DNA of 44,047 bases, taken from a virus. Lineage: Duplodnaviria; Caudoviricetes. Positions 1-38,913 of the stretch are shown one piece after another. Position 1 is the first letter of the stretch; every line of letters starts with the position of its first letter. The position numbers and the translations under genes are program-made. The DNA lies in the IMG/VR virus record IMGVR_UViG_3300048857_000003, positions 1 through 44,047 of that record. The stretch is one strand, 5' to 3'. Below the pieces are notes generated by a model. The model was not told the origin of the DNA. It saw nothing but the letters and a program-made list of their open reading frames with translations, and ran no database searches.

Positions 1-88
1 CTAGTAGCTCCGCAGTGCTATCTGCGAACATATGGCACATCTTCATCCGGCCATATGTAGCGTTCATATCGTCGACATAGACGCTCAT
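1..88 (-). CDS. DUF4031-like phage protein, N-terminal fragment running off the window edge
   Basis: ATG at 88 overlaps the stop of the upstream ORF; MSVYVDDMNATYGRMKMCHMFADSTAELL resembles the DUF4031 N-terminus; not in the ORF track. Confidence 0.6.
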   Translation of the reverse strand, partial: MSVYVDDMNATYGRMKMCHMFADSTAELL

Positions 89-423
89 CGCTTCCCCTCC
101 AGCCAGCTCATAAGCCGCTCTACGTCCTGGCAGCGGAAGTGGTGGTAGCCCTCCGTGCCCTTTACATCTGCGGGGTCGCCTTCCTGCGCTACAGCAGTAG
201 CTCGGTCGTAGCCTTCAATCCATGCGCGCTCTAAAGCCTCAGCCTTTACATCTACCGACAGGCTGGACTTGGCTGCCTGCCAAGCCTTGAATGCCAAGTG
301 AGCTGGGTAGTCAGCAAAGCAGTTGCGCTCTTCTTGCCACTCAGAGGCAAGCCAGTGGACTTCACGCAGCCATGCCTCAAACTCTTTTCTGAGCTGTTCT
401 GTGGTTAGGGTGTGGATGGTCAT
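85..423 (-). CDS. hypothetical phage protein
   Basis: 112-aa ORF in a chain of ATGA-overlapping genes downstream of P. Confidence 0.7.
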   Translation of the reverse strand: MTIHTLTTEQLRKEFEAWLREVHWLASEWQEERNCFADYPAHLAFKAWQAAKSSLSVDVKAEALERAWIEGYDRATAVAQEGDPADVKGTEGYHHFRCQDVERLMSWLEGKR

Positions 424-665
424 GCAGGGACCTCCCGAGTCTTTTGCTTCTCAGGAGCAAGATCCCCTTCCAGAGGCATCAGGAGTGTCTCACCAATAGT
501 CCAGCGTCGACCGTCAATGTGCGTTGTCCAGAACGCTTGGATTGGCGCGCCTGGATACTCTGCTATGCCTTCGTATGCGCCCAGCTTGATGACCCGGCCA
601 ATCAGCGCAGGAAGAGTCGAGCATTTGACAATTAGTGCCAGATCGCCCGGCTTGAAGTTGCTCAT
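420..665 (-). CDS. hypothetical phage protein
   Basis: 81 aa, starts MSNFKPGDLALIV; overlaps both neighbours. Confidence 0.7.
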   Translation of the reverse strand: MSNFKPGDLALIVKCSTLPALIGRVIKLGAYEGIAEYPGAPIQAFWTTHIDGRRWTIGETLLMPLEGDLAPEKQKTREVPA

Positions 666-865
666 GCTGCCTTCTCCGCTGGACCCATGATCTGAAGGTG
701 ACGCTCGCAGCGCTCCTTAGCCTCTTTCACCGTGTCGCAGGGGTGGCCGATAGCCTCTGAACCTAGCCATGCCTGATAGCGGGCTTCATTAGCGATCATG
801 TACTTGGCGACCTGATAGCCAGATTCACCACGTAGCACGTATTTGCCGTCTGGTTTCCAGTTCAT
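662..865 (-). CDS. hypothetical phage protein
   Basis: 67 aa, coupled to the P stop. Confidence 0.7.
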   Translation of the reverse strand: MNWKPDGKYVLRGESGYQVAKYMIANEARYQAWLGSEAIGHPCDTVKEAKERCERHLQIMGPAEKAA

Positions 866-1527
866 GCCCGGCCTCCTTTCAGCATGGCGCGCATCTTTGC
901 CAGCTCACTGCGTACGGTCTCAGGCTTTGCTGGAATGCTTACCTCGGACGGCAGCGCCTTCGGGATTTCCTTCAGCGGCTCGCCCTTGGCTACCATGCGG
1001 CAGGCAATGTCGTAGTTCCGGTCAAACAGCTTGCGGCTCTCTTCTTCCTTGAGCGTGTTCAGGTTGTGGTAGCCAGTCTCTTTGGCTGCGTGCATGACAG
1101 CGGCATGTGTCCACTTGCGATCAGCAGAGGGATGGGCGTTGTTGCAGGCTTCGGTGTAAGCCTTTTCAGGCGTTGGAAGACCCAACATCTCGGGGGTGGG
1201 CTGGCACATCTTGATGAACTTGCCAACGCTGGGAGCGAAGTCCTGGCCTAGGTCCCGGCAGGCCTCAATGCCATACCGGATCTGATCCAATGAATTGATG
1301 CCAGCCTTCGCAAAGGCTTTGATCCAAGTAGCCTTCGCTGCTTTCAGAGCTGCATCATTGGGCCAAGCCTGCTTCCAGGCCGGGAAGATCGAGCACAGCT
1401 CTTTGAACAGCGCATTCACGACGCGCGCACTACCCTCATCCAGTTGTTGAATAGTAGAAATAACCGTCAGGTCTGGCGTGCTCGGCAAAGTCTGCAAGCC
1501 TTTGGCAATATCGATAGCTGCTTTCAT
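862..1527 (-). CDS. replication protein P (lambda P-like helicase loader)
   Basis: LFKELCSIFPAWKQAW...PSVGKFIKMC...LGLP motif pattern; ATG at 1527 overlaps the O stop (TGATG). Confidence 0.85.
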   Translation of the reverse strand: MKAAIDIAKGLQTLPSTPDLTVISTIQQLDEGSARVVNALFKELCSIFPAWKQAWPNDAALKAAKATWIKAFAKAGINSLDQIRYGIEACRDLGQDFAPSVGKFIKMCQPTPEMLGLPTPEKAYTEACNNAHPSADRKWTHAAVMHAAKETGYHNLNTLKEEESRKLFDRNYDIACRMVAKGEPLKEIPKALPSEVSIPAKPETVRSELAKMRAMLKGGRA

Positions 1528-2333
1528 CAGAACGGCCCCAAGTCTTGTGCCCAAGAGATGTCGTCAAAGTCAGGCCCGCTTGATTTCTGAACTGGCTTGC
1601 CATTGCGACGAATACGGTTCATTACCCAATCAACCTCGAACCCCTGCCAGCCAGCCTCAAGCGCTACGGTCATGGCGTCGTCACCGGATACACCCATACC
1701 TTCAAGAATGGTCAGCTTGTCATTCAGGCTATTCCAGACGGTTTCAGAGATAGGAGCGCGCTTGGACTTACGCAGGGAGAGGTAATCAATAAGGATCTGG
1801 TCGGATAGCCCGTGCGGGTTGTTAGCCATTAGGTAATCAATACCGAAGGCTGACGTCTTGGCTTTCCGCTTAACTTTAGGTTTGGCCTGAACAGGCACAG
1901 GTGTGTTTACTAACTCTATAGAGTTAGTAGTTTCTTTATTGTCTTTATAGTGTGCAGACGTATGCTCACTGAGCGAGACTATTTTTGCTGACTGAGCATA
2001 CGTAGGCTCACTGAGCGCTTTCTGAATTTTCCACTCAGAAATTGCACAAAGACCAAGCTTCCCACGGCTTCCACCAACGCGGTAAACCACTCGCTGCTCT
2101 ATCAAAGAACACACTGCTTTGGATGCCTGGGTGCGATCCATGTTTGCCATCGTGGCAATAACGCTTGCAGCAATACGAGCCTCTGCGACGTTGTAACCTG
2201 TGGTCAGGCGATGAATGACTAAAGCTGCCTTCATATCTCTACGAGAGAGATCGGCTCCAATGAGAGCCTCGTACAAGCTGTTGTCCATTCGGGTGAACCC
2301 CCTGGACTTGTCTAACGGGACGATATTTGTCAT
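1527..2333 (-). CDS. replication initiator protein O-like
   Basis: N-terminal GFTRMDNSLYEAL...IHRLTTGYN pattern; internal iteron-like repeats; lies upstream of P. Confidence 0.85.
   Translation of the reverse strand: MTNIVPLDKSRGFTRMDNSLYEALIGADLSRRDMKAALVIHRLTTGYNVAEARIAASVIATMANMDRTQASKAVCSLIEQRVVYRVGGSRGKLGLCAISEWKIQKALSEPTYAQSAKIVSLSEHTSAHYKDNKETTNSIELVNTPVPVQAKPKVKRKAKTSAFGIDYLMANNPHGLSDQILIDYLSLRKSKRAPISETVWNSLNDKLTILEGMGVSGDDAMTVALEAGWQGFEVDWVMNRIRRNGKPVQKSSGPDFDDISWAQDLGPF
1908..2017. repeat. putative replication origin: three GCT(C/G)ACTGAGC iterons plus a 22-bp palindrome in an AT-rich tract
   Basis: Iterons at 1964-1974, 1987-1997 and 2006-2016; perfect palindrome TACTAACTCTATAGAGTTAGTA at 1908-1929; inside O, as in lambda ori. 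Confidence 0.7.
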
Positions 2334-2363
2334 GATTCGTATCGCTTGAAATGTTGTTAAAGG

Positions 2364-2390
2364 AGCCGGTCTAGCCACCGGCTTTTTTAT
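2364..2390 (+). terminator. intrinsic terminator antisense to the replication operon (oop/t0-like)
   Basis: AGCCGGT-ctagcc-ACCGGCT followed by a T run on the + strand. Confidence 0.6.
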
Positions 2391-2423
2391 TGCCTATCGG
2401 GGCGAATTAGCCCTTTTTTGTCC

Positions 2424-2624
2424 CTAATTGGTCCCACACTTTTTAGGCGGGCCCAGTATCTGGGTCACCTTTGCTTTGGGGCGGCCTGCCAAGGTCAAAC
2501 CGCCCATTGCAATTGAGTGAATAACTACCTCTTCCATAGCCTCATTGAGGCTGAGCCCTCTCACCTCCATCAAACGCTCAATCTTTGCTCTTGATTCGGG
2601 CTTCAGGTCTTCAAAGCGCAGCAT
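2424..2624 (-). CDS. small hypothetical protein, possibly DNA-binding
   Basis: 66-aa ORF between cro and O. Confidence 0.6.
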   Translation of the reverse strand: MLRFEDLKPESRAKIERLMEVRGLSLNEAMEEVVIHSIAMGGLTLAGRPKAKVTQILGPPKKCGTN

Positions 2625-2643
2625 TTGGCCCCCTTTTGGCCCA

Positions 2644-2859
2644 TCAGGCCACGCTAGAATCTTCGCTGCTCAAAAGATCGCTATTCAGTAATTCCTCTAC
2701 CGCACCGTTCTCTATTGCCCACTCAATGAGTTCTTTCAGAAAAGTGGCGTTTTGCTTGCGAGCCCTAGCTGCCGACTTGACGATGATTCGATTAATCGTG
2801 CTGTTGAGGCTCACCTTGTGGCGGTTATCTCGCCGGTGTGCTGGGTTTGCGTAGCTCAT
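2644..2859 (-). CDS. small regulatory protein in the CII position (possible ribbon-helix-helix)
   Basis: 71 aa; AGGAG SD upstream; immediately after cro. Confidence 0.55.
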   Translation of the reverse strand: MSYANPAHRRDNRHKVSLNSTINRIIVKSAARARKQNATFLKELIEWAIENGAVEELLNSDLLSSEDSSVA

Positions 2860-2884
2860 GCTGTTACTGCTCCTGTACTACTGG

Positions 2885-3130
2885 TTAAGCTGCTTGTGTT
2901 GATGTTTCCGAGATAACAAATCTCTCGGGATAAATGATCTGGATCTCATTGAGGTAGCCATCGAAGACCTTAGCCAGACCTTCTGCTACCTCGTAGGTCG
3001 GCCTTTGTAGCTGGCGCTCGATACGGGAGAGGTTCCCGTTCCCGCAGCTAACTCCAAAGGCCTTAAGCCGGGCGCAGACGTCATCTAGCGTCCAGCCTCT
3101 GGCTTTGCGTGCTTTCTTTAAAGGAGTCAT
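2885..3130 (-). CDS. cro: Cro-like XRE helix-turn-helix repressor
   Basis: LKKARKARGWTLDDV...NLSRIER HTH; divergent from cI. Confidence 0.8.
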   Translation of the reverse strand: MTPLKKARKARGWTLDDVCARLKAFGVSCGNGNLSRIERQLQRPTYEVAEGLAKVFDGYLNEIQIIYPERFVISETSTQAA

Positions 3131-3160
3131 TGGGGGACCTCATGGAGATATACAGTTCGG

Positions 3161-3189
3161 ATTCTGTTGATTGCGCAGAATTATGTCAA
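3161..3189 (-). promoter_or_regulatory. PR-type sigma70 promoter
   Basis: TTGACA (3189-3184), 17-nt spacer, CAGAAT (3166-3161); overlaps an operator-like site. Confidence 0.7.
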
Positions 3190-3232
3190 CAAAAATCTGC
3201 GCAGCGAACTTTGATTTTTGAGGATCACGCAG
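3164..3232. promoter_or_regulatory. OR operator sites, consensus CTGCG-N5-CGCAG
   Basis: CTGTTGATTGCGCAG 3164-3178, CTGCGCAG 3197-3204, TTGAGGATCACGCAG 3218-3232; the same motif recurs at PL. Confidence 0.6.
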
Positions 3233-3246
3233 TCACGATTCGCCCC

Positions 3247-3879
3247 ATGGACATTGGTGCTGCTATTCGTTCTGCTCGGAAGAGCAAAAAATGGACTCTC
3301 GAAGAGTTATCGAACCGGGTCGGAACTGACACCGGAAACTTGTCACGCCTGGAAAGAAATAAGCAGGGGGCAAGTCGCGAGCTTTTGGCTAAGATATTTA
3401 GCGAGCTAGGAATTTCGCTTGAGCCTGTAGCTGCAGATGCGATACAAACGAATGTAGCTTTAGGCAATACCAATGTTTTCGCTGGAGGTTGGCCGATTTT
3501 GTCTTGGGTATCCGCAGGACAACTATGCGCTATGTCAGAGGTAGTACCTCCGCAAGCCGCTGAGTACGCACCTGGCCCGCCTCGGCCAGAGGGTGGCTTT
3601 GCGCTAAAGGTAGAAGGCGACAGTATGACGGCTCAGTATCCTGGCGCTCGCTCATACCCTCATGGCAGCGTCATCCTTGTTGATCCCAATAAGGAAGTGA
3701 CGAACGGATGCCGCGTCATTGCTTGCATTCCCGAGTCTGAAGAAGCCGTATTCAAGACCTATGTACTAGACTCCGGCCGGGCATTCCTTAAGCCTATCAA
3801 TCCTCAATATCCTACCTACGAGATCCATCCAGGTGTGCATATCCTTGGCGTGGTTGTAGGTATGTTTATTCCTGAATGA
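3247..3879 (+). CDS. cI: CI-like repressor (XRE HTH plus S24 autopeptidase)
   Basis: N-terminal HTH, VSAG cleavage site, VEGDSM catalytic Ser, VFK catalytic Lys; probable start ATG 3247. Confidence 0.92.
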   Translation: MDIGAAIRSARKSKKWTLEELSNRVGTDTGNLSRLERNKQGASRELLAKIFSELGISLEPVAADAIQTNVALGNTNVFAGGWPILSWVSAGQLCAMSEVVPPQAAEYAPGPPRPEGGFALKVEGDSMTAQYPGARSYPHGSVILVDPNKEVTNGCRVIACIPESEEAVFKTYVLDSGRAFLKPINPQYPTYEIHPGVHILGVVVGMFIPE

Positions 3880-4175
3880 AGGATGCCGTATTCTTTACGG
3901 CAATCATCCTATGCTTCGGTATGGCCTCTGGCGGAATAGCTAAACTGTTTCCTAAAGAGGCTATTCCCTATATCTGGATAGCCGTATTCATCCCCAGCGT
4001 ATTCCTAGCCATCACGCTTACCATGCGGCTTGATGAGAAAAGGCTGCGCACCCTCTCTGATATCAGCAAGGCATTCAAAGACGGCTCCGATCTGTTCCTG
4101 AACTGGGTAGGCTGCTCTCTACTTGTTGTGCTGGTAATAGGCCTGATCGGATTTATCTTCGGCACCCTCCAGTAA
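3876..4175 (+). CDS. membrane protein co-transcribed with cI (candidate exclusion/defence gene)
   Basis: 99 aa with three hydrophobic segments; ATGA overlap with the cI stop; terminator follows. Confidence 0.7.
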   Translation: MKDAVFFTAIILCFGMASGGIAKLFPKEAIPYIWIAVFIPSVFLAITLTMRLDEKRLRTLSDISKAFKDGSDLFLNWVGCSLLVVLVIGLIGFIFGTLQ

Positions 4176-4191
4176 GTTCACTCGTTCACAG

Positions 4192-4216
4192 AACCCGCAA
4201 ATAGCGGGTTTTTTTT
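4192..4216 (+). terminator. intrinsic terminator of the cI operon
   Basis: AACCCGC-aaata-GCGGGTT followed by a T run. Confidence 0.85.
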
Positions 4217-4248
4217 GCGCCTAAAAAAAATCCCCTAAATCTGCAATT

Positions 4249-4309
4249 CTGCGCTTGACGCAAATTTTATTCTGCGCATAATACAAACCATGAACTGCGC
4301 AACACGCAG
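4249..4309 (+). promoter_or_regulatory. PL-type promoter with three OL operators
   Basis: TTGACG (4255-4260), 16 nt, CATAAT (4277-4282); operators CTGCGCTTGACGCAA 4249-4263, CTGCGCATAATACAA 4272-4286, CTGCGCAACACGCAG 4295-4309. Confidence 0.75.
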
Positions 4310-4331
4310 ATTAAGGGGCTAAATGGTCCCA

Positions 4332-4343
4332 CGCTCTTTACAC
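4332..4343 (+). promoter_or_regulatory. boxA antitermination element (nutL-like)
   Basis: CGCTCTTTACAC about 45 nt after the predicted PL start; matches lambdoid/rrn boxA CGCTCTTTA. Confidence 0.7.
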
Positions 4344-4590
4344 AATTCAGAATCCCTCCGCAGTCCCGGCATGCCGACGAGGTTAAACAGACTGCCCTAC
4401 GGTGTGATGGTCAACGCACCCATACAGGCCCATGCGCTGTATGCGATCAAGCGTCAGTCACTCTGCCCTGCCAGTAGCAGCACAGAGGAATGGGTACGAA
4501 CCCGGACATGGAAGACGTGAGAGAGACAGTGAATTCAAGGTAGCCAGCTCGTGAAGTTGGCTATCACTTGTATCCACTGGAGATGACGAG

Positions 4591-4716
4591 ATGAACGACA
4601 AGCATCTGCAAGGATTTGAGATCCCGAAGAGAGATAAGCGTGCAGCGAAGCTGAGTCGCAAGAAGGAGAAGAAGATAAAGCTAATGCGCCTACAGGCTAG
4701 AGCGTTTGCCGCTTAA
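4591..4716 (+). CDS. 41-aa Lys/Arg-rich peptide, first well-supported PL gene
   Basis: GGAG SD; MNDKHLQGFEIPKRDKRAAKLSRKKEKKIKLMRLQARAFAA; below the ORF-track size cutoff. Confidence 0.55.
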   Translation: MNDKHLQGFEIPKRDKRAAKLSRKKEKKIKLMRLQARAFAA

Positions 4717-4753
4717 TCAACCTATGGCATCCCTATGCAATGGAGATGATGAG

Positions 4754-4945
4754 ATGAGAGAACAGAGCAAACTTACGCAGGATGAGCACGAAGAGCTCGT
4801 GCAGGTGCCTGTAAAACTAATGGAGAAAGCAGCTCGTCATGTAGGCGATCTGGCTTGCATTGTTATGGCAAATAACGGCGGTATGCCTAACACCATATTT
4901 GATGTTGAAGATGAGCTACGTGCGCTGATTAACACAGCAAGATAG
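4754..4945 (+). CDS. hypothetical 63-aa early protein
   Basis: GGAG SD with nearly the same initiation region as the 4591 ORF. Confidence 0.65.
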   Translation: MREQSKLTQDEHEELVQVPVKLMEKAARHVGDLACIVMANNGGMPNTIFDVEDELRALINTAR

Positions 4946-5013
4946 TAACCGCACCACCTGCCCCGCTTAAGCGGTAAGCAGTTCCCTGCCCCTCTACGGA
5001 GGGGTATGGCTTC

Positions 5014-5178
5014 AGGTTGTAGTGGTGTATGCGGTCGCAGGGCGCATTTTTAGGTGGCGTCAGTCATTGCAGGGGTTGCTCCTGAATAGGGCTGGCGGTG
5101 AACGCCTGATCAACGTTTCGATAAGTCCGCTTATAGGTCGAGGTTCAATTCCTCGGGCCGCATACACCAGTACAGCTT
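5014..5178 (+). ncRNA. tRNA-like structured RNA (cassette 1)
   Basis: ~23-bp closing stem 5014-5036/5156-5178; T-arm CGAGG-TTCAATT-CCTCG 5139-5155 next to 7-bp TGCGGTC/GGCCGCA; ACCA at 5166-5169; no normal anticodon arm. Confidence 0.7.
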
Positions 5179-5352
5179 GTGCACGTCAAGCCCACCGTGA
5201 CGAATAACGGAGGCAGCTAGAGCGTCATGCTCCTTCTGTTGCAACTGCATGAACACGGATATGTGGGTTCATCATGGGAGGGAAAGCCTGTGTATCTCGT
5301 CCGATTGCAGTACGTGATCTAGCCGACTTGCCGCCGTAAGCGGCTCCCCTTC

Positions 5353-5533
5353 TAGGTTGTAGTGGGTTGATCCGAATGCCCGGGCTGACGGGCAAAGAGA
5401 GCCCCGTGGTGATGTGGGCGGAAGTTGACCCAAACACGCTTTGCTGAGGCGGCCGAACGATTTGGGAGGCCAACGAAAAGACACACCAGCATGCCGGGAT
5501 CAGCTCCGGCCGGATCAACACCAGTACAACCTA
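5353..5533 (+). ncRNA. C4 antisense RNA-like element (cassette 2)
   Basis: GAATGCCCGGGCTGACGGGC and ATGCCGGGATCAGCTCCGGC hairpins with complementary loops (GCTGA/TCAGC) match the recalled C4 family pattern; closing stem 5353-5374/5511-5533. Confidence 0.75.
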
Positions 5534-5549
5534 TCCCACCTGAATACCC

Positions 5550-5696
5550 ATGACAACCCAACAAGTTTTAGCCGATGCCCAGCGCATACGGCAGCAGGCG
5601 GCTGCGCATGATTCTTTCGTCGCAGCGATGTTAATCGAGCGAGCGCAAAGGCTGGAGCAGCGTGCCCAGCAAGGACGTAGAGATGGTAGTCGTTGA
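5550..5696 (+). CDS. 48-aa ORF directly after the C4-like RNA (icd-like position)
   Basis: MTTQQVLADAQRIRQQAAAHDSFVAAMLIERAQRLEQRAQQGRRDGSR; overlaps the next start; weak SD. Confidence 0.45.
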   Translation: MTTQQVLADAQRIRQQAAAHDSFVAAMLIERAQRLEQRAQQGRRDGSR

Positions 5697-6114
5697 GATA
5701 GACCTTAGCGAGTACGACGAGAAAAGAAGCCGTATCAGCCTGATCCTATGGACGCTCAATAAGCTTGAAGATGGCGGCATCAAGGCCAGAGCTTGGTTCG
5801 GCGGCACTCATACATACGGAAATTTCTACCCTATCGAGCCTGGCACTCTGGCCCGTCAATTCCTCACTGACCGGCTAGTGCGCTTCACCTTCGCTGCCGC
5901 CGAGACAAAGGGCGTCAAGCCGCTCGAGTTTGAACCCGAAACTGCGCCTAAACGCCCTGTAGCAGTGCCGGACGAAGCCAAGCGTGAAGCAACCGTGCAA
6001 GCACTGGCTACCTACTTAGCACAGAGCGAGGCCCGCAAATACAGGCTAAGCCCAGAACAAACCCAGCAGGCGTATCAACGCCACCTTGACCACATGCAAC
6101 GGAGAGCAAGCTGA
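5683..6114 (+). CDS. hypothetical early protein
   Basis: ORF in the operon chain; start at 5662 or 5683. Confidence 0.7.
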   Translation: MVVVEIDLSEYDEKRSRISLILWTLNKLEDGGIKARAWFGGTHTYGNFYPIEPGTLARQFLTDRLVRFTFAAAETKGVKPLEFEPETAPKRPVAVPDEAKREATVQALATYLAQSEARKYRLSPEQTQQAYQRHLDHMQRRAS

Positions 6115-6356
6115 TGGACCCACTAGCTGCATTAGCTGAATGCAAGAAAGCATTTGAAAGCCTGGATCAGAAACTTCTGGAAGCCAGAGAGTACGAGGCT
6201 TGCAAGATTCTGGACAGGCTATTTCTCAAGACGACTTACGTAGCCCGACAGAACGCCGCTAATGCGCTCCTGTTTGCATTCAAGAAGGGCGACATCAGCG
6301 AGCGTGTGTTTGATCGGTACTGGACTCAGTTGAATGGGTATGAGGTGGCTGCATGA
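6114..6356 (+). CDS. hypothetical early protein
   Basis: 80 aa; GGAG SD; TGATG overlap. Confidence 0.7.
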   Translation: MDPLAALAECKKAFESLDQKLLEAREYEACKILDRLFLKTTYVARQNAANALLFAFKKGDISERVFDRYWTQLNGYEVAA

Positions 6357-6751
6357 GCAACATTAAAAGCTATGTAGTTAGACAAACATGGGGTGATTAC
6401 GAAGTCCATCTCGAGGTCGACTTTGACATTCTCACCCCCGAGCATGCCAAGAATCATATTGATTTCTGGTCTGGCGCAAACGAGTTCAGAGAAGCAGAGT
6501 CAGGCTCGGATGAAATGGCTCTGATACGCCTGTTCGGTTCTCGCATGATCCATCTAATGCTGAGTGAAGGTGGATCATCCTTCCAGCATGGACATACAGT
6601 TGGAAGGCTATGGACTGAGCAACTTCAAAATGAAGAAGGCTGGGCAGGCTATGACGGAACACCTTTCGGCAGGGTTGGTATTCGCGTAGTTGCCGCATCA
6701 GTTGATGGCGTCGGATTTGATGACGTAGAACTTGAGGAATGCGCGGAATGA
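6353..6751 (+). CDS. DUF2528-like phage protein
   Basis: YEVHLEVDFDILT...IDFWSG...EEGW pattern. Confidence 0.6.
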   Translation: MSNIKSYVVRQTWGDYEVHLEVDFDILTPEHAKNHIDFWSGANEFREAESGSDEMALIRLFGSRMIHLMLSEGGSSFQHGHTVGRLWTEQLQNEEGWAGYDGTPFGRVGIRVVAASVDGVGFDDVELEECAE

Positions 6752-6864
6752 CCTCACGACAGCATCTCCGCAGACGCCTGCTATGGCGCTCAGCCGCATC
6801 CGCTATCGGTATGTACGTATTCATTATCGGCAGTCTGGCTATTGCCGATGCTGTGACTCAGTAA
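6748..6864 (+). CDS. 38-aa membrane peptide
   Basis: MTSRQHLRRRLLWRSAASAIGMYVFIIGSLAIADAVTQ; ATGA overlap. Confidence 0.55.
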   Translation: MTSRQHLRRRLLWRSAASAIGMYVFIIGSLAIADAVTQ

Positions 6865-6897
6865 CTCCCCTCTTCTCAGCATTCTGCTGGAGACATC

Positions 6898-7509
6898 ATG
6901 ATCAAATCTGAATCCATAGCCGCACTGGCTAAGGCGCTCGCGGCTGCGCAAAACGAAATCGAGAACGCCAAGAAAGACAGCACCAACCCCCATTTCCGCT
7001 CTTCGTACAGCTCACTAGCAGAGATCCTAGACACTTGCCGGCCAGTGCTCAGCAAGAACGGTCTGTCCATTACCCAGATGCCAGGGTTTGAAGACGGCAA
7101 GGTCAGCGTAGAAACGATGATCATGCATGAATCTGGAGAGTGGATCAGTAGCACCCTCACTGTTCCAGTAGGTAAGCAGGACGCCCAAGGCGTAGGCAGC
7201 GCGACAAGCTACGCCAGGCGGTATGCCTTGGCCGCAGTGGTCGGTATAGCTCAAGCAGACGATGACGCCGAGGCTGCGGTTCAGCAGATCCCGCGTCAGA
7301 CCCAGCCAGCTCATAAGCCAGCCCCGCCGGTAAAGCTGGTTGGCGAAGGTGAGGTCTCTCAACTACGTCAAGCGCTAACAGTTGCAGGGATGACGGAAGA
7401 AGCCTTCTGCGGTGTATCCAAAATTGGATCGATCGAACAGCTACCGCTAGCCAAATTTGCTGGGGCGATCGACTACATCAAGAAACAAGCTCAAGGCGAC
7501 GCCGCCTGA
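6898..7509 (+). CDS. erf: ERF-family single-strand annealing recombinase
   Basis: KKDSTNPHF.S.Y, HESGEW, QGVGSATSYARRYALAAVVGIAQADDDA. Confidence 0.93.
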   Translation: MIKSESIAALAKALAAAQNEIENAKKDSTNPHFRSSYSSLAEILDTCRPVLSKNGLSITQMPGFEDGKVSVETMIMHESGEWISSTLTVPVGKQDAQGVGSATSYARRYALAAVVGIAQADDDAEAAVQQIPRQTQPAHKPAPPVKLVGEGEVSQLRQALTVAGMTEEAFCGVSKIGSIEQLPLAKFAGAIDYIKKQAQGDAA

Positions 7510-7510
7510 T

Positions 7511-7879
7511 ATGAGCAGCTGCGTGATCGTATGCGGAGGCCGCAATTACCAAGACCGCAAGTTTCTATTCGAGCAGCTTGATCGGGCTCATAAGAAGTCT
7601 CCTTTCGGCTTTATCGTCCAAGGCGGCGCCGATGGGGCTGACTTCCTGGCATACGAATGGGCTCGCTCTAGAGAGATATCGTGCCTCTGCATTCCGGCGA
7701 AGTGGAGCAGAAAAGGCAAGGCTGCTGGGCCTTCGAGAAATAGAGCAATGCTCATGCTTGAGCCTAAAGCAGTGATTGCATTCGAAGGTGGTCGAGGTAC
7801 TGCGGACATGATCCGCCAAGCACTAGACGCAGGTATCCCCGTATGGGAGCCATGCAAAACCAAAACTGAAGAGAATTGA
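7511..7879 (+). CDS. SLOG-superfamily DUF2493 (YspA-like) protein
   Basis: [39 protein letters not shown]. Confidence 0.85.
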
Positions 7880-7880
7880 T

Positions 7881-8357
7881 ATGGCATCTCGTGGCGTTAA
7901 CAAAGTGATTCTAGTTGGCAACTGTGGCAGTGACCCTGAAGTGCGGTATGCACCCAGCGGCAGCGCTTTTGCCAACGTGACCTTGGCTACCAGTGAGAGC
8001 TGGAAGGACAAGCAGACAGGCCAGCTTCAAGAGCGAACAGAATGGCACCGCGTGGTCTTTAGCGGAAAGCTTGCTGAGATCGTTGGCGAATACGTTCGTA
8101 AAGGCTCGCAAATCTACGTTGAAGGCCAGCTACGAACGCGCAAATGGCAGAACCAGCAAGGTCAGGATCAGTATACGACTGAGATTGTCGTAGGCATAGG
8201 CGGCACAATGCAGCTTCTAGGTGGCGCACCAAGTGAAGGTGGCCAGCAGCAACGTCATCCAAGAGCTCAAGCACCGCAGCAGCGTCCTCAGCAGCAGGCA
8301 CAACAACCTCAGCCTGCGCCTGACTACGACAGCTTCGATGATGATATCCCCTTCTGA
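7881..8357 (+). CDS. ssb: single-stranded DNA-binding protein
   Basis: [14 protein letters not shown]...TEWHRVV...acidic DDDIPF tail. Confidence 0.97.
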
Positions 8358-8374
8358 TCTCACGACTTAACGAT

Positions 8375-8396
8375 AAGGCGCTACGGCGCCTTTTTT
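8375..8396 (+). terminator. intrinsic terminator after ssb
   Basis: AAGGCGC-tacg-GCGCCTT followed by a T run. Confidence 0.85.
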
Positions 8397-8419
8397 ATCG
8401 CCCGCAGTTGGAGGCGACC

Positions 8420-8758
8420 ATGACTCCTTCATTTACTCCTGAACTGATAGCTAAGGCCTACCGCATGAAAATCATGGAAGGCTTGGAATACAAGGTCATT
8501 GCTCGAAAGCTTGGTGTTGATCACGAAAAGCTGCGCAGGTCGGTACACAACTCAGCGCAATACGGAACGCTCGATCGGTACAAGCTGGGCGATACCAGAC
8601 GATACGCGCCGATCCTTGGTAAAGCTGAGCTCGTCCTGGCTTATGAGCTCCACCAAAACGGCTGTGAGTGGAAGCACATAGCCGCCGGGCTTGGAGTCTC
8701 CACCTCCACGATCAAGCAAGCAGTAGGAAGAGTGATGCGTGAGGGCTTGCCGTCATGA
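8420..8758 (+). CDS. protein with two tandem HTH motifs
   Basis: GLEYKVIARKLGVDHEKLRRSV and GCEWKHIAAGLGVSTSTIKQAV; GGAGG SD. Confidence 0.7.
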   Translation: MTPSFTPELIAKAYRMKIMEGLEYKVIARKLGVDHEKLRRSVHNSAQYGTLDRYKLGDTRRYAPILGKAELVLAYELHQNGCEWKHIAAGLGVSTSTIKQAVGRVMREGLPS

Positions 8759-8910
8759 CCTGCGAACACGCCTGGATCTTCACCAGCCCCTGCACGATCC
8801 GCTGCACTCAATGCCAGACCGTAGCAAGACGACAGTTCTCCCGGCAAGAGCGGCGCGAACACCACGAAGGCCGCTGGATACGCCTTATCTCTACGGCTAA
8901 AGCCGCCTAG
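8755..8910 (+). CDS. 51-aa putative zinc-binding peptide
   Basis: MTCEH...CTIRCTQC; ATGA overlap. Confidence 0.45.
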   Translation: MTCEHAWIFTSPCTIRCTQCQTVARRQFSRQERREHHEGRWIRLISTAKAA

Positions 8911-8919
8911 GACACCCCC

Positions 8920-9114
8920 ATGACCACTCTCCACGAATCGGCCCAAGCCGTGGCCGAGGCATACCCGTACGTTGAGCTAAGCACCGGCAAGCATTGGCGC
9001 GTTCTGTTCAAGGCTAACGGTGTGTACGTGCTTGAGGACGTCTCAGGCCACCGCAGAAAGCCTGTTAAACGCGAGATGTTAAACAACCCCAGCATATGGC
9101 AGAGGCAGATATGA
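8920..9114 (+). CDS. hypothetical protein
   Basis: 64-aa ORF in the operon chain. Confidence 0.6.
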   Translation: MTTLHESAQAVAEAYPYVELSTGKHWRVLFKANGVYVLEDVSGHRRKPVKREMLNNPSIWQRQI

Positions 9115-9296
9115 ACACCATTGACACACTAGAAGAAGAGATCGCAACCCGTGAAGCTGAGCGGGATGTGGCCCACGATCAGATCAAGGACCTTAAGGTT
9201 GCAATCCAGAACGCGCTTGACGCCCTGGAGCATGGCGAAACCAAGACGGCTATCGACCAGCTAGAGGAAGCGCTTAGCCCGGAGGATGAGGCATGA
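9111..9296 (+). CDS. acidic coiled-coil hypothetical protein
   Basis: 61 aa; ATGA overlaps on both sides. Confidence 0.65.
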   Translation: MNTIDTLEEEIATREAERDVAHDQIKDLKVAIQNALDALEHGETKTAIDQLEEALSPEDEA

Positions 9297-9910
9297 GCAT
9301 CCAAGCAACGCCAGAAATGATTGCTGCATTCAACGAGGCGTTCCGCGCCGTTCGAAACGACAGCGTAACTTATGAAGACGCACTGAAGTTAGGTATCGAG
9401 GCCGCGCTATCCGCCGTACCCCAGCCGGTGGATGAGCTTGAGATATGGCATTGTCCCGTGTGCCGAATTGAAAAGGCAATCAGTGGTGACTGTGATCTAT
9501 GCGCAATGCCTATGCGAAAGGGGGAAATGGTTCCATTAACGGATACGACCAGTGCCTCCCAGATCAAAGCGCTCCAGCAGGACTACATAGACCTGCACAA
9601 CAAGCATGAAGCGCTGAAGGCTGAGATGGGCGCCCGTACCGCACCGGCTGAATGTATCGCAATTGGCAGCTTAAGTCGCGAGGCCGGCAGCGAGCGTATA
9701 GTGCTTGACCCCATCGGAGACCCGCATATCAAAGATGGGATGATCGTATACACCGCACCCGGCGCACTCATGGCTGAGGTAGAGCGGCTGAAGGCAGATC
9801 TTGGGGTCGCTAACGAACAGCTGCGACAAGTTTCGGTGCAGCCATTCATAAATTCAAAGCTAGCTAAACGCATTGATGAGTTCCTCGCCACGCAGGAGCA
9901 GCAGCCATGA
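9293..9910 (+). CDS. hypothetical protein with zinc ribbon and coiled coil (ead/Ea22-like region)
   Basis: CPVC...CDLC; LMAEVERLK. Confidence 0.7.
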   Translation: MSIQATPEMIAAFNEAFRAVRNDSVTYEDALKLGIEAALSAVPQPVDELEIWHCPVCRIEKAISGDCDLCAMPMRKGEMVPLTDTTSASQIKALQQDYIDLHNKHEALKAEMGARTAPAECIAIGSLSREAGSERIVLDPIGDPHIKDGMIVYTAPGALMAEVERLKADLGVANEQLRQVSVQPFINSKLAKRIDEFLATQEQQP

Positions 9911-10146
9911 GTACTAAAAGCGACAAGTACCGCGCCGAACTATACGACGAGGTCTGGCAGAGGGCGCGAGACATGGGTTATGGCAACGTCACTGACGCGC
10001 TGGCTGAGGTTGAGCGGCTGAAGGACAGGCTAGATATAGCGCAGACGTTCATTGAGCAGCTAACTAAGGTGGTGACAGTTAATGGAAGCAGCCTTTCACA
10101 GCGGGCCAATGAAATCCTGATAGCCATGCAGGACCCACAGCTATGA
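9907..10146 (+). CDS. hypothetical coiled-coil protein
   Basis: 79 aa; LAEVERLK. Confidence 0.65.
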   Translation: MSTKSDKYRAELYDEVWQRARDMGYGNVTDALAEVERLKDRLDIAQTFIEQLTKVVTVNGSSLSQRANEILIAMQDPQL

Positions 10147-10268
10147 CCCTCATCATCGCCGCCCTGACTGGATCGGTTGCCTACCTAGCGCTCTACCAGT
10201 CGCCGGTCTGGGCGTTCCTTCTGCCGTTTGTGATGTTTACCTGGGAGACCAGTTATGAGCATGCGTGA
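10143..10268 (+). CDS. 41-aa hydrophobic peptide
   Basis: MTLIIAALTGSVAYLALYQSPVWAFLLPFVMFTW...; fills the gap between coupled genes. Confidence 0.45.
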   Translation: MTLIIAALTGSVAYLALYQSPVWAFLLPFVMFTWETSYEHA

Positions 10269-10518
10269 AGAGTTTGAGTCGTGGTTCTACGCAAGCAAAT
10301 ACGCTCAAGTGGCTCCGCCGACAAAGGCGGCTGAACAGGCTGCTTGGGATGGCTGGCAAGCCTCCCGAGCGGAACTGGTTGTTAAGATGCCCCGACAAAA
10401 ACGAATTGACCCCCATTGCTATGACCAAGGGAAAAACCTCAAATCAGAAGGCTTTAATGAAGCATTAGCATGCTGCCGCCTATCCATTGAAGACGCTGGC
10501 ATACAGGTGAAGCCATGA
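10255..10518 (+). CDS. hypothetical phage protein
   Basis: MREEFESW...AWDGWQASRA pattern common in Pseudomonas prophages. Confidence 0.7.
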   Translation: MSMREEFESWFYASKYAQVAPPTKAAEQAAWDGWQASRAELVVKMPRQKRIDPHCYDQGKNLKSEGFNEALACCRLSIEDAGIQVKP

Positions 10519-10613
10519 CTGACGACATCAAATGCCTACTGTCATGGCTGTTTATTGTGTGCTTCGGGTATGTGGTGTGGTGGGCTTATGCGGGAGCTGT
10601 GCAATGGCAGTAA
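10515..10613 (+). CDS. 32-aa membrane peptide
   Basis: MTDDIKCLLSWLFIVCFGYVVWWAYAGAVQWQ; ATGA overlap. Confidence 0.45.
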   Translation: MTDDIKCLLSWLFIVCFGYVVWWAYAGAVQWQ

Positions 10614-10771
10614 CGACCAAGCAGTGCCCGGTGTGTGGTAATCGGGATCTGGTCCGCCTCAGCACGCATAACATCAAGATCTGCCCCGACTGCCGTATAG
10701 ACATCCCTTGGCATAGAGAAGAAGGCGAACCTCCCTTCTATCCCTCACAGCCTGTTAAGACTTCCAACTAA
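10604..10771 (+). CDS. small zinc-ribbon protein
   Basis: CPVCG...CPDC; GGAG SD before ATG 10604. Confidence 0.6.
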   Translation: MAVTTKQCPVCGNRDLVRLSTHNIKICPDCRIDIPWHREEGEPPFYPSQPVKTSN

Positions 10772-10816
10772 TCCCTTCCTTTGTATACCTGCCAGCATGG
10801 CGGGATGGAGATAGTC

Positions 10817-11368
10817 ATGCCTGAAGAAAGCCTAGTTTACGGCCAGCTAACACCCGAAACATGGAACGACTTCGTTAAGCGTCTTCGCCACGATTGTGTA
10901 GGCGCTGGGGTAAAAGAGCACTACACAGCCGATGCGATCTTTAAAGTTGAAGCCAAGCGGACTACCTACGGCATAGATCTAGACTACGGCTGCACTCGTG
11001 TTGTCCTCTGGGAAGACAGCGAGTGGTTTAGTCCTCAAGAGTATTGGAATGACGCTGAAGAGGACATGCAGGAGAACCTTGACCATATCGCTATGGAAGA
11101 AGGTGAATGTAAGTTCCTTGAGTTAAGTGAGCGCGATCAGTGGGAGATACTGGCAGAGCTAGAAGATCACACGGTCACCGGCTGTAATGATCATTGGGAG
11201 TATGTGAACTCGCACTTCACTAAGGATGCTGCTGAAGCATTCATTCAGAGGAAAAAGCATGATTATCCAAAAGGGCTGCGCGTATACGTTGACGCCCAAT
11301 CTTACTGCTGGGAATACAACGCTATCAAGGAAGCGATACTGAGCGGAAAGCTTCAGTACGTCGCTTAA
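10817..11368 (+). CDS. acidic hypothetical phage protein
   Basis: 183 aa; TADAIF...AEAFIQRKKHDY; GGAG SD. Confidence 0.75.
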   Translation: MPEESLVYGQLTPETWNDFVKRLRHDCVGAGVKEHYTADAIFKVEAKRTTYGIDLDYGCTRVVLWEDSEWFSPQEYWNDAEEDMQENLDHIAMEEGECKFLELSERDQWEILAELEDHTVTGCNDHWEYVNSHFTKDAAEAFIQRKKHDYPKGLRVYVDAQSYCWEYNAIKEAILSGKLQYVA

Positions 11369-11415
11369 CCCCTACCCCTTCCTTTATATACACCTGCCCT
11401 GCAGGAGGCATTGCT

Positions 11416-11802
11416 ATGGGCCAACCAGCCTATCCCCCGCGATTTATCCGAGCCGGTGACGCGCCGGGCTACCTCGGCATGTGCCGGGATGAGTTCAACA
11501 AGACCGTTAGGCCCCATGTCCGGGAATTTCCCATAGGAATGCGGGGCGTCGGATTCGACCGAGAAGAGTTGGATGCCTGGGCAGATGCATACGTTGAGCG
11601 GGCAGCGATTGAAAAGAAAGGCGCTACGGGGCAACAATCCGCCCGCAGCGAGCGCCGGACAGGAGTTAAGCCATGGCGCGAAAAACGATCACAGGTCTCT
11701 CGCAAAGAAACGGGATCTGGCATATCGACAAAAAGGTCGACGGAGTACGACTTTATGAAAGCACTGGAGTCAGTGACCGGCAAGAAGCCGAACGTTATCT
11801 GA
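11416..11802 (+). CDS. excisionase/AlpA-like protein overlapping int
   Basis: PRFIRAGDAPGYLGMCR...FDREELDAWADAY winged-helix pattern; directly upstream of int. Confidence 0.7.
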   Translation: MGQPAYPPRFIRAGDAPGYLGMCRDEFNKTVRPHVREFPIGMRGVGFDREELDAWADAYVERAAIEKKGATGQQSARSERRTGVKPWREKRSQVSRKETGSGISTKRSTEYDFMKALESVTGKKPNVI

Positions 11803-12839
11803 TCCACCGCCTGGAACAGCTGAGGCAGCAAAAGGTATATGGGATCAGACAAGTAAGGCTGTGGGAGGAAGCCGCAGCGAGGTTTATCAAGGAGTTCAAG
11901 GATCAGCCGTCTATTCAGTTGACCGTGCAATACCTGAAGCAGCTACACCCCTTCATTGGCTCGATACCCCTCACCCACATCGACGACGAAGCGCTTGAGC
12001 CTTTTATCAGGCACAAGCTGGAAGCGGATGGCGTATCAGCCAGGACGGTGAATATCGCACTGGAACGAGTGATCAGGATCTTGAACCTGTGTGCACGGAA
12101 GTGGCGGGATGAAGAGAAGCGGCCTTGGCTGGATGCCGTGCCCATGATCAAGAAGCTGGATGAGGCGAAGGCAGCACGTAAGCCCTACCCGCTTTCATGG
12201 GAGGAGCAGTCGATTCTCTTTGCTGAGTTACCCGATCATCTGCGGCGCATGGCCTTATACAAGGTCAACACTGGATGCAGGGAGCAGGAAGTGTGCAAGC
12301 TGAGATGGGAATGGGAGATCAAGGTGCCAGAGATTGGAACCAGTGTATTTCTGATTCCAGCAGGCTTTGGCGGGCGACATGATAAGTCGGGCGTTAAGAA
12401 TGGAGACGAACGCTTGGTCGTCCTGAATACCGTAGCGATGTCGGTCATTGATGGTCAGCGTGGTTTGCATCCGATATGGGTATTCCCTTACGGGGTATCA
12501 GATGAAAAGGGTCCAACAGCAGTACACAGGATGAATGACAGCGCATGGAAGAAGGCCAGGGTCAGAGCAGCTGACAAGTGGGAGCAAATACACAAGACCA
12601 GTGCTCACCCTGGGTTTCGGTCAATTCGCGTGCATGATTTAAAACACAGCTTTGGAAGAAGGCTTAAAGCGGCAGGGGTATCTGAAGAGGACCGGAAAGC
12701 ATTACTTGGCCACAAGAACGGTAGCATTACAAGCCACTATTCGGGCGCAGAGCTAGGTCAGTTAATAGAAGCCTCAAACAGAATATCAGTAACCGACTCT
12801 CGTGGCCCGACGCTTACGATCCTAAAAAGGAGAGCGTAA
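11673..12839 (+). CDS. int: tyrosine integrase
   Basis: TGCREQE, HDLKHSFG, LLGH and SHY catalytic motifs; adjacent attP. Confidence 0.95.
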   Translation: MARKTITGLSQRNGIWHIDKKVDGVRLYESTGVSDRQEAERYLIHRLEQLRQQKVYGIRQVRLWEEAAARFIKEFKDQPSIQLTVQYLKQLHPFIGSIPLTHIDDEALEPFIRHKLEADGVSARTVNIALERVIRILNLCARKWRDEEKRPWLDAVPMIKKLDEAKAARKPYPLSWEEQSILFAELPDHLRRMALYKVNTGCREQEVCKLRWEWEIKVPEIGTSVFLIPAGFGGRHDKSGVKNGDERLVVLNTVAMSVIDGQRGLHPIWVFPYGVSDEKGPTAVHRMNDSAWKKARVRAADKWEQIHKTSAHPGFRSIRVHDLKHSFGRRLKAAGVSEEDRKALLGHKNGSITSHYSGAELGQLIEASNRISVTDSRGPTLTILKRRA

Positions 12840-13342
12840 TGGATAAAAGCTATGTTGAGATAGATGTGTCAACCAAGATGTATCCCGGAATGAAGTGCAA
12901 AGTCGACCCAGAGGATGTGGCAATGCTGGCTGGATACAAATGGGGAGTAACATATATGGGCGAGGGAAACTCAAAACTCCCATATGCACGTATTCGAAAA
13001 GAAGAAAACGGAGTCTTCCGATACATACGAATGCATCGCCTGATTATGAATGCGCCTGCCGGGGTAGAGGTTGATCACATAAACGGCGATACGCTAGATA
13101 ACCGTAAATCTAACTTAAGGTTTGCGACTAGATTAGAGCAATCACGAAACACAGGGATGCGGAAGAACAATACGACTGGCTTCAAAGGCGTCAGTCAGAT
13201 CAAAACGAGCAAACGGTTCAGAGCCTACATAGTAGTAAACCGCAAGCAAATCAACCTTGGAGTATATCTCTGCGCTGAAGAAGCATCGGCAGCATATCAA
13301 GAAGCGGCCAAAAAGCTATTTGGTGATTTCATGAGGGCATGA
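12839..13342 (+). CDS. HNH endonuclease with AP2-like domain
   Basis: MHRLIM...VDHINGDTLDNRKSNLR...TTGFKGVS...INLGVY. Confidence 0.9.
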   Translation: MDKSYVEIDVSTKMYPGMKCKVDPEDVAMLAGYKWGVTYMGEGNSKLPYARIRKEENGVFRYIRMHRLIMNAPAGVEVDHINGDTLDNRKSNLRFATRLEQSRNTGMRKNNTTGFKGVSQIKTSKRFRAYIVVNRKQINLGVYLCAEEASAAYQEAAKKLFGDFMRA

Positions 13343-13353
13343 AATCATGAGAA

Positions 13354-13372
13354 GTCACGCAAAAGTCACGCA
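13354..13372 (+). repeat. integrase arm-type site (left)
   Basis: GTCACGCAAAAGTCACGCA, identical to 13561-13579. Confidence 0.75.
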
Positions 13373-13375
13373 CAC

Positions 13376-13404
13376 AAAAAAGGCCGGGTATCGATAACCG
13401 GCCT
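13376..13404 (-). terminator. intrinsic terminator downstream of the attP tRNA 3' end
   Basis: Minus strand AGGCCGG-ttatcgatac-CCGGCCT followed by a T run. Confidence 0.7.
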
Positions 13405-13421
13405 CTAATGCTGATGTTCAT

Positions 13422-13469
13422 TGGTCGGGACGGAGTGATTCGAACACTCGACCCCTTGCACCCCATGCA
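13422..13469 (-). mobile_element. attP core, equal to the 3' portion of tRNA-Pro(GGG)
   Basis: Minus strand TGCATGGGGTGCAAGGGGTCGAGTGTTCGAATCACTCCGTCCCGACCA gives anticodon arm, T arm and CCA with no 5' half; arm repeats flank it. Confidence 0.9.
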
Positions 13470-13560
13470 CGCAGGGGCATACCAAACCTAGCCAAACCGC
13501 AGTATCTACGGGCGCTCGCTGCAACCTGATGCCTATAGATGCCGACAAGTGCGTGAGAAT

Positions 13561-13579
13561 GTCACGCAAAAGTCACGCA
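13561..13579 (+). repeat. integrase arm-type site (right)
   Basis: 19-bp direct repeat of 13354-13372. Confidence 0.75.
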
Positions 13580-13705
13580 GCACATGTGCGGCATTGCTGG
13601 AGTATGGCTCATGCTCCGCAGAGGGGATTCCAGCGCAGACGGGCACCCCGCATAACCCCTCAAATCCCCTCCTAGTGGTACAGAATTTGGTACAAGCTAT
13701 TGTCT

Positions 13706-14131
13706 CTACCCAGACGAAGAAAACCCCGAGCTTGTCGGGGTCTTGTAATGACTTTGGCCGCCTAGCCTCACTCCTATATAGAAGAGGATCGCCCTCCATC
13801 GCGCTACGCCCTCAGCCCTGAGCGCCCGGTAAAGGACCGCGTCGCACTCTTTACGGTTAAGGCTGCTGCCTTCGTACAGGTAGTCATGGATAGTGCAGGC
13901 TGCATTCCCATAACCGGACAACGTAGCGTATATGGGATTAGCGATTAGCCTAAGACTGCGGATAGAGGCGAAGTTAGTCACGAACCCAGTAGGCACGGTG
14001 ATCGTATCGTACTTGGGGTCTCTATATATAAGAGGGGACGTTAGCTGCCACGTCCAGCGGCCGTACTGCTCAGCAGTCAGGTTGGTAGCGAAATGGCCCC
14101 GCTCGGTTACTGCCGGCTCGATCCACCTCAT
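13706..14131 (-). CDS. DUF1353 family protein
   Basis: VPTGFVTNFASI, IHDYLY, KECDAV...YIGVRLGG. Confidence 0.85.
   Translation of the reverse strand: MRWIEPAVTERGHFATNLTAEQYGRWTWQLTSPLIYRDPKYDTITVPTGFVTNFASIRSLRLIANPIYATLSGYGNAACTIHDYLYEGSSLNRKECDAVLYRALRAEGVARWRAILFYIGVRLGGQSHYKTPTSSGFSSSG
13718..13744 (-). terminator. terminator at the end of the late operon
   Basis: Minus strand GACCCCGA-caagc-TCGGGGTT followed by TTCTT. Confidence 0.6.
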
Positions 14132-15643: not shown

Positions 15644-15654
15644 GGGGGTTTTGC

Positions 15655-19983: not shown

Positions 19984-19986
19984 GCG

Positions 19987-24562: not shown

Positions 24563-24590
24563 TAAAAAAGCCCAGTCAGGCGCTGGGCTT
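24563..24590 (-). terminator. terminator of the YafO-like operon
   Basis: Minus strand AAGCCCAG...CTGGGCTT followed by a T run. Confidence 0.8.
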
Positions 24591-38847: not shown

Positions 38848-38913
38848 GTGACTGGTCTCCTGGGTTGCCGCGCCGGACAACTGAGCTCGGTCACTGGCCT
38901 TATGGGTTATTGG

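Follow-up and report, generated by a model that had tools for sequence, protein, structure and literature searches.

The species 1 and 2 RNAs of phage T4 (RNA C and RNA D), the small stable RNAs of T5 and the M3 RNA of phi80 are similar to the RNA described below in size, in their tRNA-like ends and in being processed by the host. The T4 and T5 RNAs are encoded within the tRNA clusters of lytic phages. The C4 RNA of phages P1 and P7 is a small phage RNA encoded near the immunity region, closed by a long stem and acting as antisense RNA on its own operon; its Rfam model describes a three-way junction without a T-loop. We take the CI RNA of P4 to belong with C4 as a near known system. A tRNA-like domain without an anticodon is also found in tmRNA, which measures ~350 nt and carries a G3.U70 pair and a tag reading frame.

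Both C4 and the M3 RNA of phi80 are substrates of RNase P, an enzyme that measures 12 bp from the T-loop (PMC11143913). DicF of prophage Qin is released by RNase III/E from the early operon of the prophage and acts in trans; this antisense RNA measures 53 nt, depends on Hfq and has no tRNA features (PMC12197685). The bacterial Y RNAs YrlA and YrlB are host-processed and tRNA-like (PMC4201824); they are marked by a Ro60-binding motif close to the 5' end and by a Ro60 gene next to them. Finally, in the engineered tRNA scaffold a cargo is placed in the anticodon arm for the sake of stability (PMC3753655).

The RNA presented here, cassette 1, is a real variant of the phage tRNA-like RNAs in a modular slot, and its function is predicted. 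It shares with tRNA the acceptor, the T-arm and, at the level of sequence, a D-arm-like hairpin in the usual order, with an insert (the payload) at the place of the anticodon arm. In contrast to tRNA, it has neither an anticodon loop nor an in-register CCA, and 14 further pairs enclose it. The position of the insert is that of the cargo in the engineered scaffold, which is laboratory-made (PMC3753655), whereas cassette 1 is natural and exchangeable. The T4 and T5 RNAs, to which it is likened by description, lie in lytic tRNA clusters; cassette 1 lies in a temperate early leader, in a swappable frame. The preliminary description of this DNA overlooked that the leader of the pL-type transcript has a fixed frame, for which cassette 1 is just one of several exchangeable payloads.

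Cassette 1 lies in IMG/VR record IMGVR_UViG_3300048857_000003, positions 1 to 44,047 of which form the stretch considered here (the window). The genes of the window are those of a lambdoid temperate phage of the Pseudomonas type. After the CI repressor, the plus strand carries Erf, ssb, an xis-like gene and an integrase; the replication genes O and P, the cro-like gene and the head, tail and lysis genes are on the minus strand (PHROG gene calls). The host is probably a pseudomonad, since the frame is contained in a Pseudomonas duriflava genome and pieces neighbouring the cassette match Pseudomonas phages. Some other parts of the window may be mentioned. A YspA-related SLOG protein (7457-7879, +) is encoded with Erf on one side and ssb on the other. 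A tRNA-Pro-like 3' half (13421-13469, -) after the integrase and HNH genes is likely attP; at 13421 and 13469, loose contig ends are seen in run X5. A YafO-family toxin gene of the bacterial toxin-antitoxin type (24589-25068, -; Pfam E 9e-15) is found amid the tail genes, and a protein of 505 aa that contains a domain of glycoside hydrolase family 5 (37363-38880, -) is encoded between the lysis and terminase genes.

The sigma-70-like site that follows cI (Table 1) is predicted to drive an early operon of the cassettes, Erf, ssb, the xis-like gene and the integrase. It is one of two sigma-70-like matches within 2800-6200, a count that does not exceed chance expectation. Along the predicted pL transcript, cassette 1 is reached after ~740 bases; it is flanked by small ORFs without family matches. 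An ORF over the cassette itself (5022-5207) was rejected as protein-coding: it has no PHROG or Pfam match and is lost when the cassette contents change. An assembled contig of the RNA run X3 spans 4724-5497 (depth 23.6); contigs of this run also cover 29 of the 30 bins into which 1-20000 was divided, even over tail genes. DNA carry-over is therefore possible, and the contigs cannot rank genes by expression.

Table 1. Features of the immunity region and early leader, in positions of the window
Feature	Position	Strand	Basis or remark
cro-like gene	2885-3130	-	with the CI-type repressor gene marks the immunity region
CI-type repressor gene (HTH + S24)	3109..3879	+	PHROG repressor E 5e-31; Pfam S24, HTH_3
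Sigma-70-like promoter, predicted pL equivalent	4255..4282	+	10/12 consensus positions; site after cI, gene order
Two hairpins preceding the first cassette in relatives	4958..5008	+	98-99% identity in L004, L005
Closing frame stem, 5' strand (7 bp on either side of a G.G mismatch), predicted to be of the RNase III type	5015..5029	+	fold; outer frame nearly invariant in 18 cassettes
Acceptor-like stem, 5' strand (U1-A72, G2-C71, C3-G70; no G3.U70)	5030..5036	+	sequence; pair probability 0.96-1.0
D-arm-like hairpin, 5 bp, 11-nt loop, GG at 5053-5054	5041..5061	+	sequence; formation uncertain
Payload replacing the anticodon arm, includes hairpin 5070-5084	5062..5120	+	pairs with the D-arm region in the rival fold
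5-bp tetraloop hairpin, 4 nt ahead of the T-arm, resembling a long variable arm	5121..5134	+	probability ~0.5
Canonical T-arm, 5 bp, loop UUCAAUU	5139..5155	+	sequence; probability 0.94-0.97
Acceptor 3' strand (5156-5162) and frame-stem 3' strand (5163-5177)	5156..5177	+	sequence, fold
Second cassette, shared frame: 7-bp acceptor-like stem, GCUGA and UCAGC loops, different payload	5355..5531	+	not Rfam C4

According to the folding model, cassette 1 has a genuine tRNA top half, with the T-arm stacked on the acceptor-like helix in exact tRNA register. Both the helix (5030-5036/5156-5162) and the T-arm are part of the minimum-energy fold of 5015-5177 and, as in tRNA, a 7-bp acceptor sits on a 5-bp T-stem with a canonical T-loop. 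The preliminary description had named both elements correctly. It understated the length of the helix, which continues for 14 further pairs around a G.G mismatch. The complete closing stem comprises 21 bp: the acceptor (7), 5023-5029/5163-5169 (7) and 5015-5021/5171-5177 (7), the mismatch (5022/5170) separating the two outer helices. No CCA is present at tRNA positions 74-76, and the bases past the acceptor are U, A, C and A; the CCA that does occur in cassette 1 is paired and out of register. The fold of 5023-5173 (-63.6 kcal/mol, z -3.9) was reached by 0/200 shuffles. In dinucleotide shuffles of the whole window, a perfect T-arm alone arises in 87/1000 and one on a closing helix of at least 12 bp in 0/1000; with a 7-bp closing helix, it arises in 19/1000 whole-window shuffles.

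The lower half is less certain. The D-arm-like hairpin of the preliminary description stands as a sequence feature, and a similar hairpin appears at the equivalent place in 467 of 20000 interior shuffles. In the folding model it is ~1% populated, the tRNA-like fold lying +2.6 kcal/mol above a rival long irregular arm. This low population is weak evidence against the D-arm, because the model, which contains no tertiary contacts, also underscores the D-stem in two of three real tRNAs (just 0-0.47 and 0.26). A14 is present; the 4-nt connector lacks U8 and the purine-pyrimidine 15-48 pair is absent, so that neither U8 nor 15-48 is canonical. The D-loop may dock on the T-loop via G5053-U5145 and G5054-C5146. 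Three short hairpins had further been described in place of the anticodon and variable arms. The first (5070-5084) is predicted at 0.90-0.98, the last (5121-5134) is borderline, and the middle one (5094-5106) is not predicted (0.03).

None of the RNA families tested accounts for this structure. A search of 4900-5600 against Rfam at E 10 gave chance-level matches only, the best of which (mascRNA, E 1.3) falls on the T-arm, and the tRNA model (RF00005) had no match at E 10. Cassette 1 is thus a tRNA-top-half mimic outside known Rfam families, as had been proposed. At its default threshold, ARAGORN reports no tRNA or tmRNA gene. An intron-containing tRNA was rejected, as the intron mode is silent here at the default and yields no intron form on the plus strand at 90%. 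A tmRNA was rejected as well: pair 3-70 is C-G and not G.U, no tag frame is present in the ~135 nt, and ARAGORN gives no such gene even at 90% of its threshold. Likewise, the Ro60-binding motif of the Y RNAs is absent from cassette 1, the RNA ends of which close the acceptor; RF02565 (YrlB) has no match, and no Ro60 gene is found among the 57 ORFs scanned with PHROGs and the 21 scanned with Pfam. What cassette 1 has in common with YrlA/YrlB (PMC4201824) is the tRNA-like form and the proposed processing by the host. DicF (PMC12197685) differs in form from cassette 1, which is tRNA-shaped and has no Rfam match. In the literature covered, which excludes older and subscription works, no description of the cassette class or of the kissing-loop scaffold (see below) was found.

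The models for C4 (RF01695) and c4-2 (RF02944) have no match at E 10 in the genome, although the C4 model scores 74.4 bits on the positive control L068. This bears on the proposal that cassette 1 is an antisense immunity RNA like C4 of P1 or the CI RNA of P4, which would pair with phage early mRNA. Its small size, its compatibility with RNase P, its place near the immunity region and the true C4 in the related locus L068 are all in line with such a role. However, cassette 1 has a T-loop where C4 has none, and perfect complements elsewhere in the phage reach at most 10 nt, are scattered, and within 4200-7000 measure 8-9 nt; no antisense target was found among them. An antisense role is therefore considered highly improbable.

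Cassette 1 belongs to a recurring class of stem-closed T-arm cassettes; by the models used, the likeness is one of architecture, insert homology not being seen. In a search for the kissing-loop motif, 119 viral loci were recovered; 39 are short. Scanned strictly for a T-arm with a closing helix, these loci gave 8 rows. Ordinary tRNAs account for 4 of the rows and chance for 1; the other 3 are cassettes (L079, L091 and L178) with helices of 17-18 bp and interiors of 66-94 nt. All three cassettes bear D-arm-like hairpins, though they were chosen on T-arm and helix only. A relaxed scan found 10 distinct sequences with a T-loop on a long closing helix in the 119 loci and 12 in 140 loci, where L232 and L308 were added. 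The former stems from a D-arm and T-arm scan, in which the acceptor is closed in 71 of 123 matches and L232 is the only long closure among the matches listed, the others appearing to be of other types. The latter stems from a pattern search of 401 genomes, the 12 matches of which comprise this one cassette, 3 tRNA genes and 8 chance matches.

A covariance model (R1) was trained on L178, L232 and L079, with the window excluded; it holds three sequences, and its calibration is rough. Its best match in the window is 5021-5171 (+) with 21.9 bits (E 0.0014), followed by a match of 10.4 bits, while the opposite strand reaches 5.0, and it also finds the L308 family. That R1, built without cassette 1, ranks it first supports its membership of the class. 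A T-arm on a helix of at least 14 bp, a D-like hairpin, a multi-hairpin insert and a hairpin before the T-arm are all found in cassette 1. The position of this last hairpin (5121-5134) is also occupied in L079, L178 and L232, with all 5 pairs differing on both sides among these three. Pair counts in the alignment of the three relatives (A3) are circular for the closing helix and the T-arm, both of which served as selection criteria. Applied to 151 genomes, a set holding no positive control, R1 gave no match at E 1e-4.

The T-loop is invariant among six sequences of the L308 family. Four cultured Pseudomonas phages contain cassettes of this type without any annotation; that of Orimi01 lies just past a divergent repressor-like gene. 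A co-oriented S24 repressor was found in 4 of 13 class loci (42 ORFs scanned), and L097 precedes a terminase. Minimal, nearly payload-free forms also exist (L022, L025, L072 and L141). After the D-arm, a stub with a CGU or UGU loop is seen in L178 (62-75), L232 and L308, perhaps the remnant of a threonine anticodon. Many viral tRNA-like genes (L214, L240, L222, L215, L190, L245 and others) contain a hairpin and an ACAGCAA-type insert between the D-arm and the anticodon arm, and a separate group (L191, L272 and L297) resembles intron-bearing tRNA-Tyr. In L232:1-2505, a long array of stem-closed RNA cassettes is interspersed with real tRNA genes.

The class is tied to tRNA ancestry, because L178 scores 40.9 bits as a tRNA (with a 41-nt insert). 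Cassette 1 itself might be a decaying, functionless tRNA gene caught in the frame. At 97% of the ARAGORN threshold, a pseudo-tRNA-Ile(GAU) is indeed called at 5075-5162, and the earlier statement that there is no anticodon arm thus holds at default thresholds only. Furthermore, T-arm and acceptor share 23 of 24 bases with a viral tRNA(CAU) gene (L007), and real tRNAs adjoin such cassettes. However, the call is within shuffle range: its level at the 95% threshold is attained by 63/1000 interior shuffles, or 117/1000 if the last hairpin is kept. The GAU hairpin is ~1% populated and carries C at position 37, without the 7-nt loop with U33 and a purine at 37. L007 was selected by that same T-arm and acceptor pattern, the closure of 21 bp is whole and sits exactly in the register of a tRNA, and the design of the class recurs with unrelated stem sequences. 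A mere relic is therefore very unlikely.

Homologues of the payload were not found. The IMG/VR pattern search by frame and T-arm returned none, and further IMG/VR patterns gave one chance match and one ordinary tRNA. BLAST of cassette 1 against 50,697 phage records produced no match covering 80% and none to the T4 or T5 RNAs. In 401 Pseudomonadaceae genomes 99 weak matches were obtained (best E 0.001), the 8 inspected being short and scattered. The payload was likewise absent from 17 genomes of the genus, from the metagenome scan and from the genome scan.

The frame around the payload, on the other hand, recurs. Searches with the upstream frame and the neighbouring genes led to 13 viral loci and, beyond these, to a genome, a metagenome contig and a further viral locus. 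The metagenome scan and the genome scan each contributed one frame locus of the kissing type, the latter in P. duriflava. Together with the window, the frame holds 18 distinct complete cassettes (the cut-off L024 was left out of this count): 9 with kissing loops, 3 with a canonical T-arm and 6 others. The outer frame is nearly invariant across all 18, so it shows no covariation and may persist as a DNA recombination repeat. Both hairpins upstream of it (4958..5008) are kept in 12 of 13 frame loci, L027 having the first one replaced. In L022 and L025, the frame contains minimal mimics consisting of D-arm, stub and T-arm. Other folded payloads without T-arm or kissing loops occupy the same frame in L016, L018, L020 and L028, in L019, in L024 and in L321; those of L016 and L019 have no Rfam match. 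Phage IME307 (L001:3800-4010) has a stem-closed cassette that lacks a T-arm and carries a D-arm-like hairpin close to its 3' end.

The 12-base frame repeat at 5014-5025 occurs again at 5354-5365. Contigs of three runs (two of RNA and one of DNA, X1, from which the window may stem) join 5013 to 5354 over this repeat, and close relatives thus lack exactly cassette 1 and its spacer, between two frame repeats. The X5 contig with this join also differs at other bases, which identifies it as a relative without the cassette. Gain and loss of cassettes by recombination between frame repeats would be the simplest reading of these joins. The spacer itself (5180-5350, +), which is missing along with cassette 1 in the relatives, has a 3' end (5313-5347) 94% identical to the pL leader of IME307, with a hairpin at its end.

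The second cassette of the window represents a sister scaffold, in which the GCUGA and UCAGC loops are predicted to kiss where the D/T elbow would sit. Among the 119 loci, 81 distinct elements combine an acceptor-like stem of 7 bp with two hairpins, one of 5 bp with GCUGA in its loop and one resembling a T-arm with UCAGC in its loop. The search pattern itself prescribed the two loop sequences, and their pairing is a prediction. The helix ends at exactly 7 pairs in 42/81 and A is found at position 73 in 53/81, and the inserts (37-173 nt) form 42 payload clusters. The preliminary description had spoken of a C4 loop pair in this neighbouring cassette. That label is not supported, as Rfam has no match to the sister scaffold elements and yet finds the true C4 elsewhere in L068. 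The widespread kissing-loop scaffold (5355-5531, loci L067-L185) is possibly more interesting than cassette 1 itself.

The tRNA shape is regarded as a carrier chiefly because one frame accommodates many payloads and both types of elbow. It is tentatively proposed, as the favoured reading, quite possible but short of probable, that the tRNA half is a scaffold for folding and stability, that the cassette is released from the pL leader by RNase III and that the payload acts in trans. This proposal builds on the observed anatomy and position of cassette 1, on a fixed frame whose contents are exchanged and on the recurrence of the design. Several points speak against it: the missing payload homologues, the unfavoured D-arm, the small training set of R1 and its lack of matches in the 151 genomes, the invariance of the frame and the mixed gene context of the class loci. 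Cassette 1 would be transcribed from the pL-type promoter after infection or induction, and host RNase III would then cut the 21-bp closing stem. The release of DicF and, in lambda, the cut in the N leader are precedents for this step. Optionally, RNase P might trim the RNA to 5030. The 12 bp from the T-loop to 5030 suit this enzyme. However, pairing extends over 7 more bases of the would-be leader and position 73 is not followed by CCA, so that a cut of the RNase III type probably precedes the trimming or is enough by itself. A stable RNA of ~135-150 nt would be released, the tRNA half protecting the insert much like the cargo of the engineered scaffold, and the payload may act early in infection on a target of the host or of a rival phage. 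A role in anti-defence or competition is a guess from context.

Excision could also matter in cis. The cassette would then serve the pL leader as a signal for processing or antitermination, setting the ends and the stability of the downstream early mRNA, with the RNA as a by-product. The position between promoter and early genes and the invariant frame agree with this, and precedents exist in lambda (RNase III sites of the N leader) and in HK022 (put RNA). Still, a bare stem would suffice for such a role, yet many different and highly folded contents are kept, and relatives drop the cassette while keeping one frame. A cis role is thus distinctly unlikely.

Alternatively, elbow and acceptor may be the active part, the insert being secondary. 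The released RNA would be a decoy for host proteins that bind these elements, such as tRNA-end-modifying toxins or sensors of damaged tRNA. The payload-free mimics in the same frame (L022 and L025) and on other stems (L072 and L141) point in this direction: that minimal, payload-poor forms fill such slots favours the elbow over the scaffold as the active part. The invariant T-loop of the L308 family agrees. Against this, 15 of the 18 frame contents have no canonical T-arm, and the CCA of cassette 1 is paired and shifted from its register. An elbow decoy is accordingly rated unlikely, although less so than a signal in cis. Anticodon nucleases, the targets suggested originally, are an improbable quarry for any decoy of this form. 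PrrC, RloC and AriB of PARIS cut the anticodon loop, which cassette 1 does not have; without a 7-nt loop bearing U33 and purine 37, it would not mimic their substrate.

Returning to the scaffold reading, it can be asked how far it extends. Temperate phages of the Proteobacteria might run a natural tRNA-scaffold display, in which fixed frames of early operons set free tRNA-shaped RNAs with a canonical or a kissing-loop elbow, inserts recombine as a library of RNA effectors against defences or rivals and of which cassette 1 would be a member; this wider proposal is speculative and rather doubtful. The variable region of the early operon, usually seen as an array of small-protein genes, holds exchangeable structured RNAs that annotation misses. 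If the decoy reading is true, such cassettes would make it possible to examine directly whether non-decoding mimics are a phage answer to tRNA-directed defences. If the scaffold reading is true, they would be nature's version of a laboratory device and would provide dozens of candidate RNA effectors.
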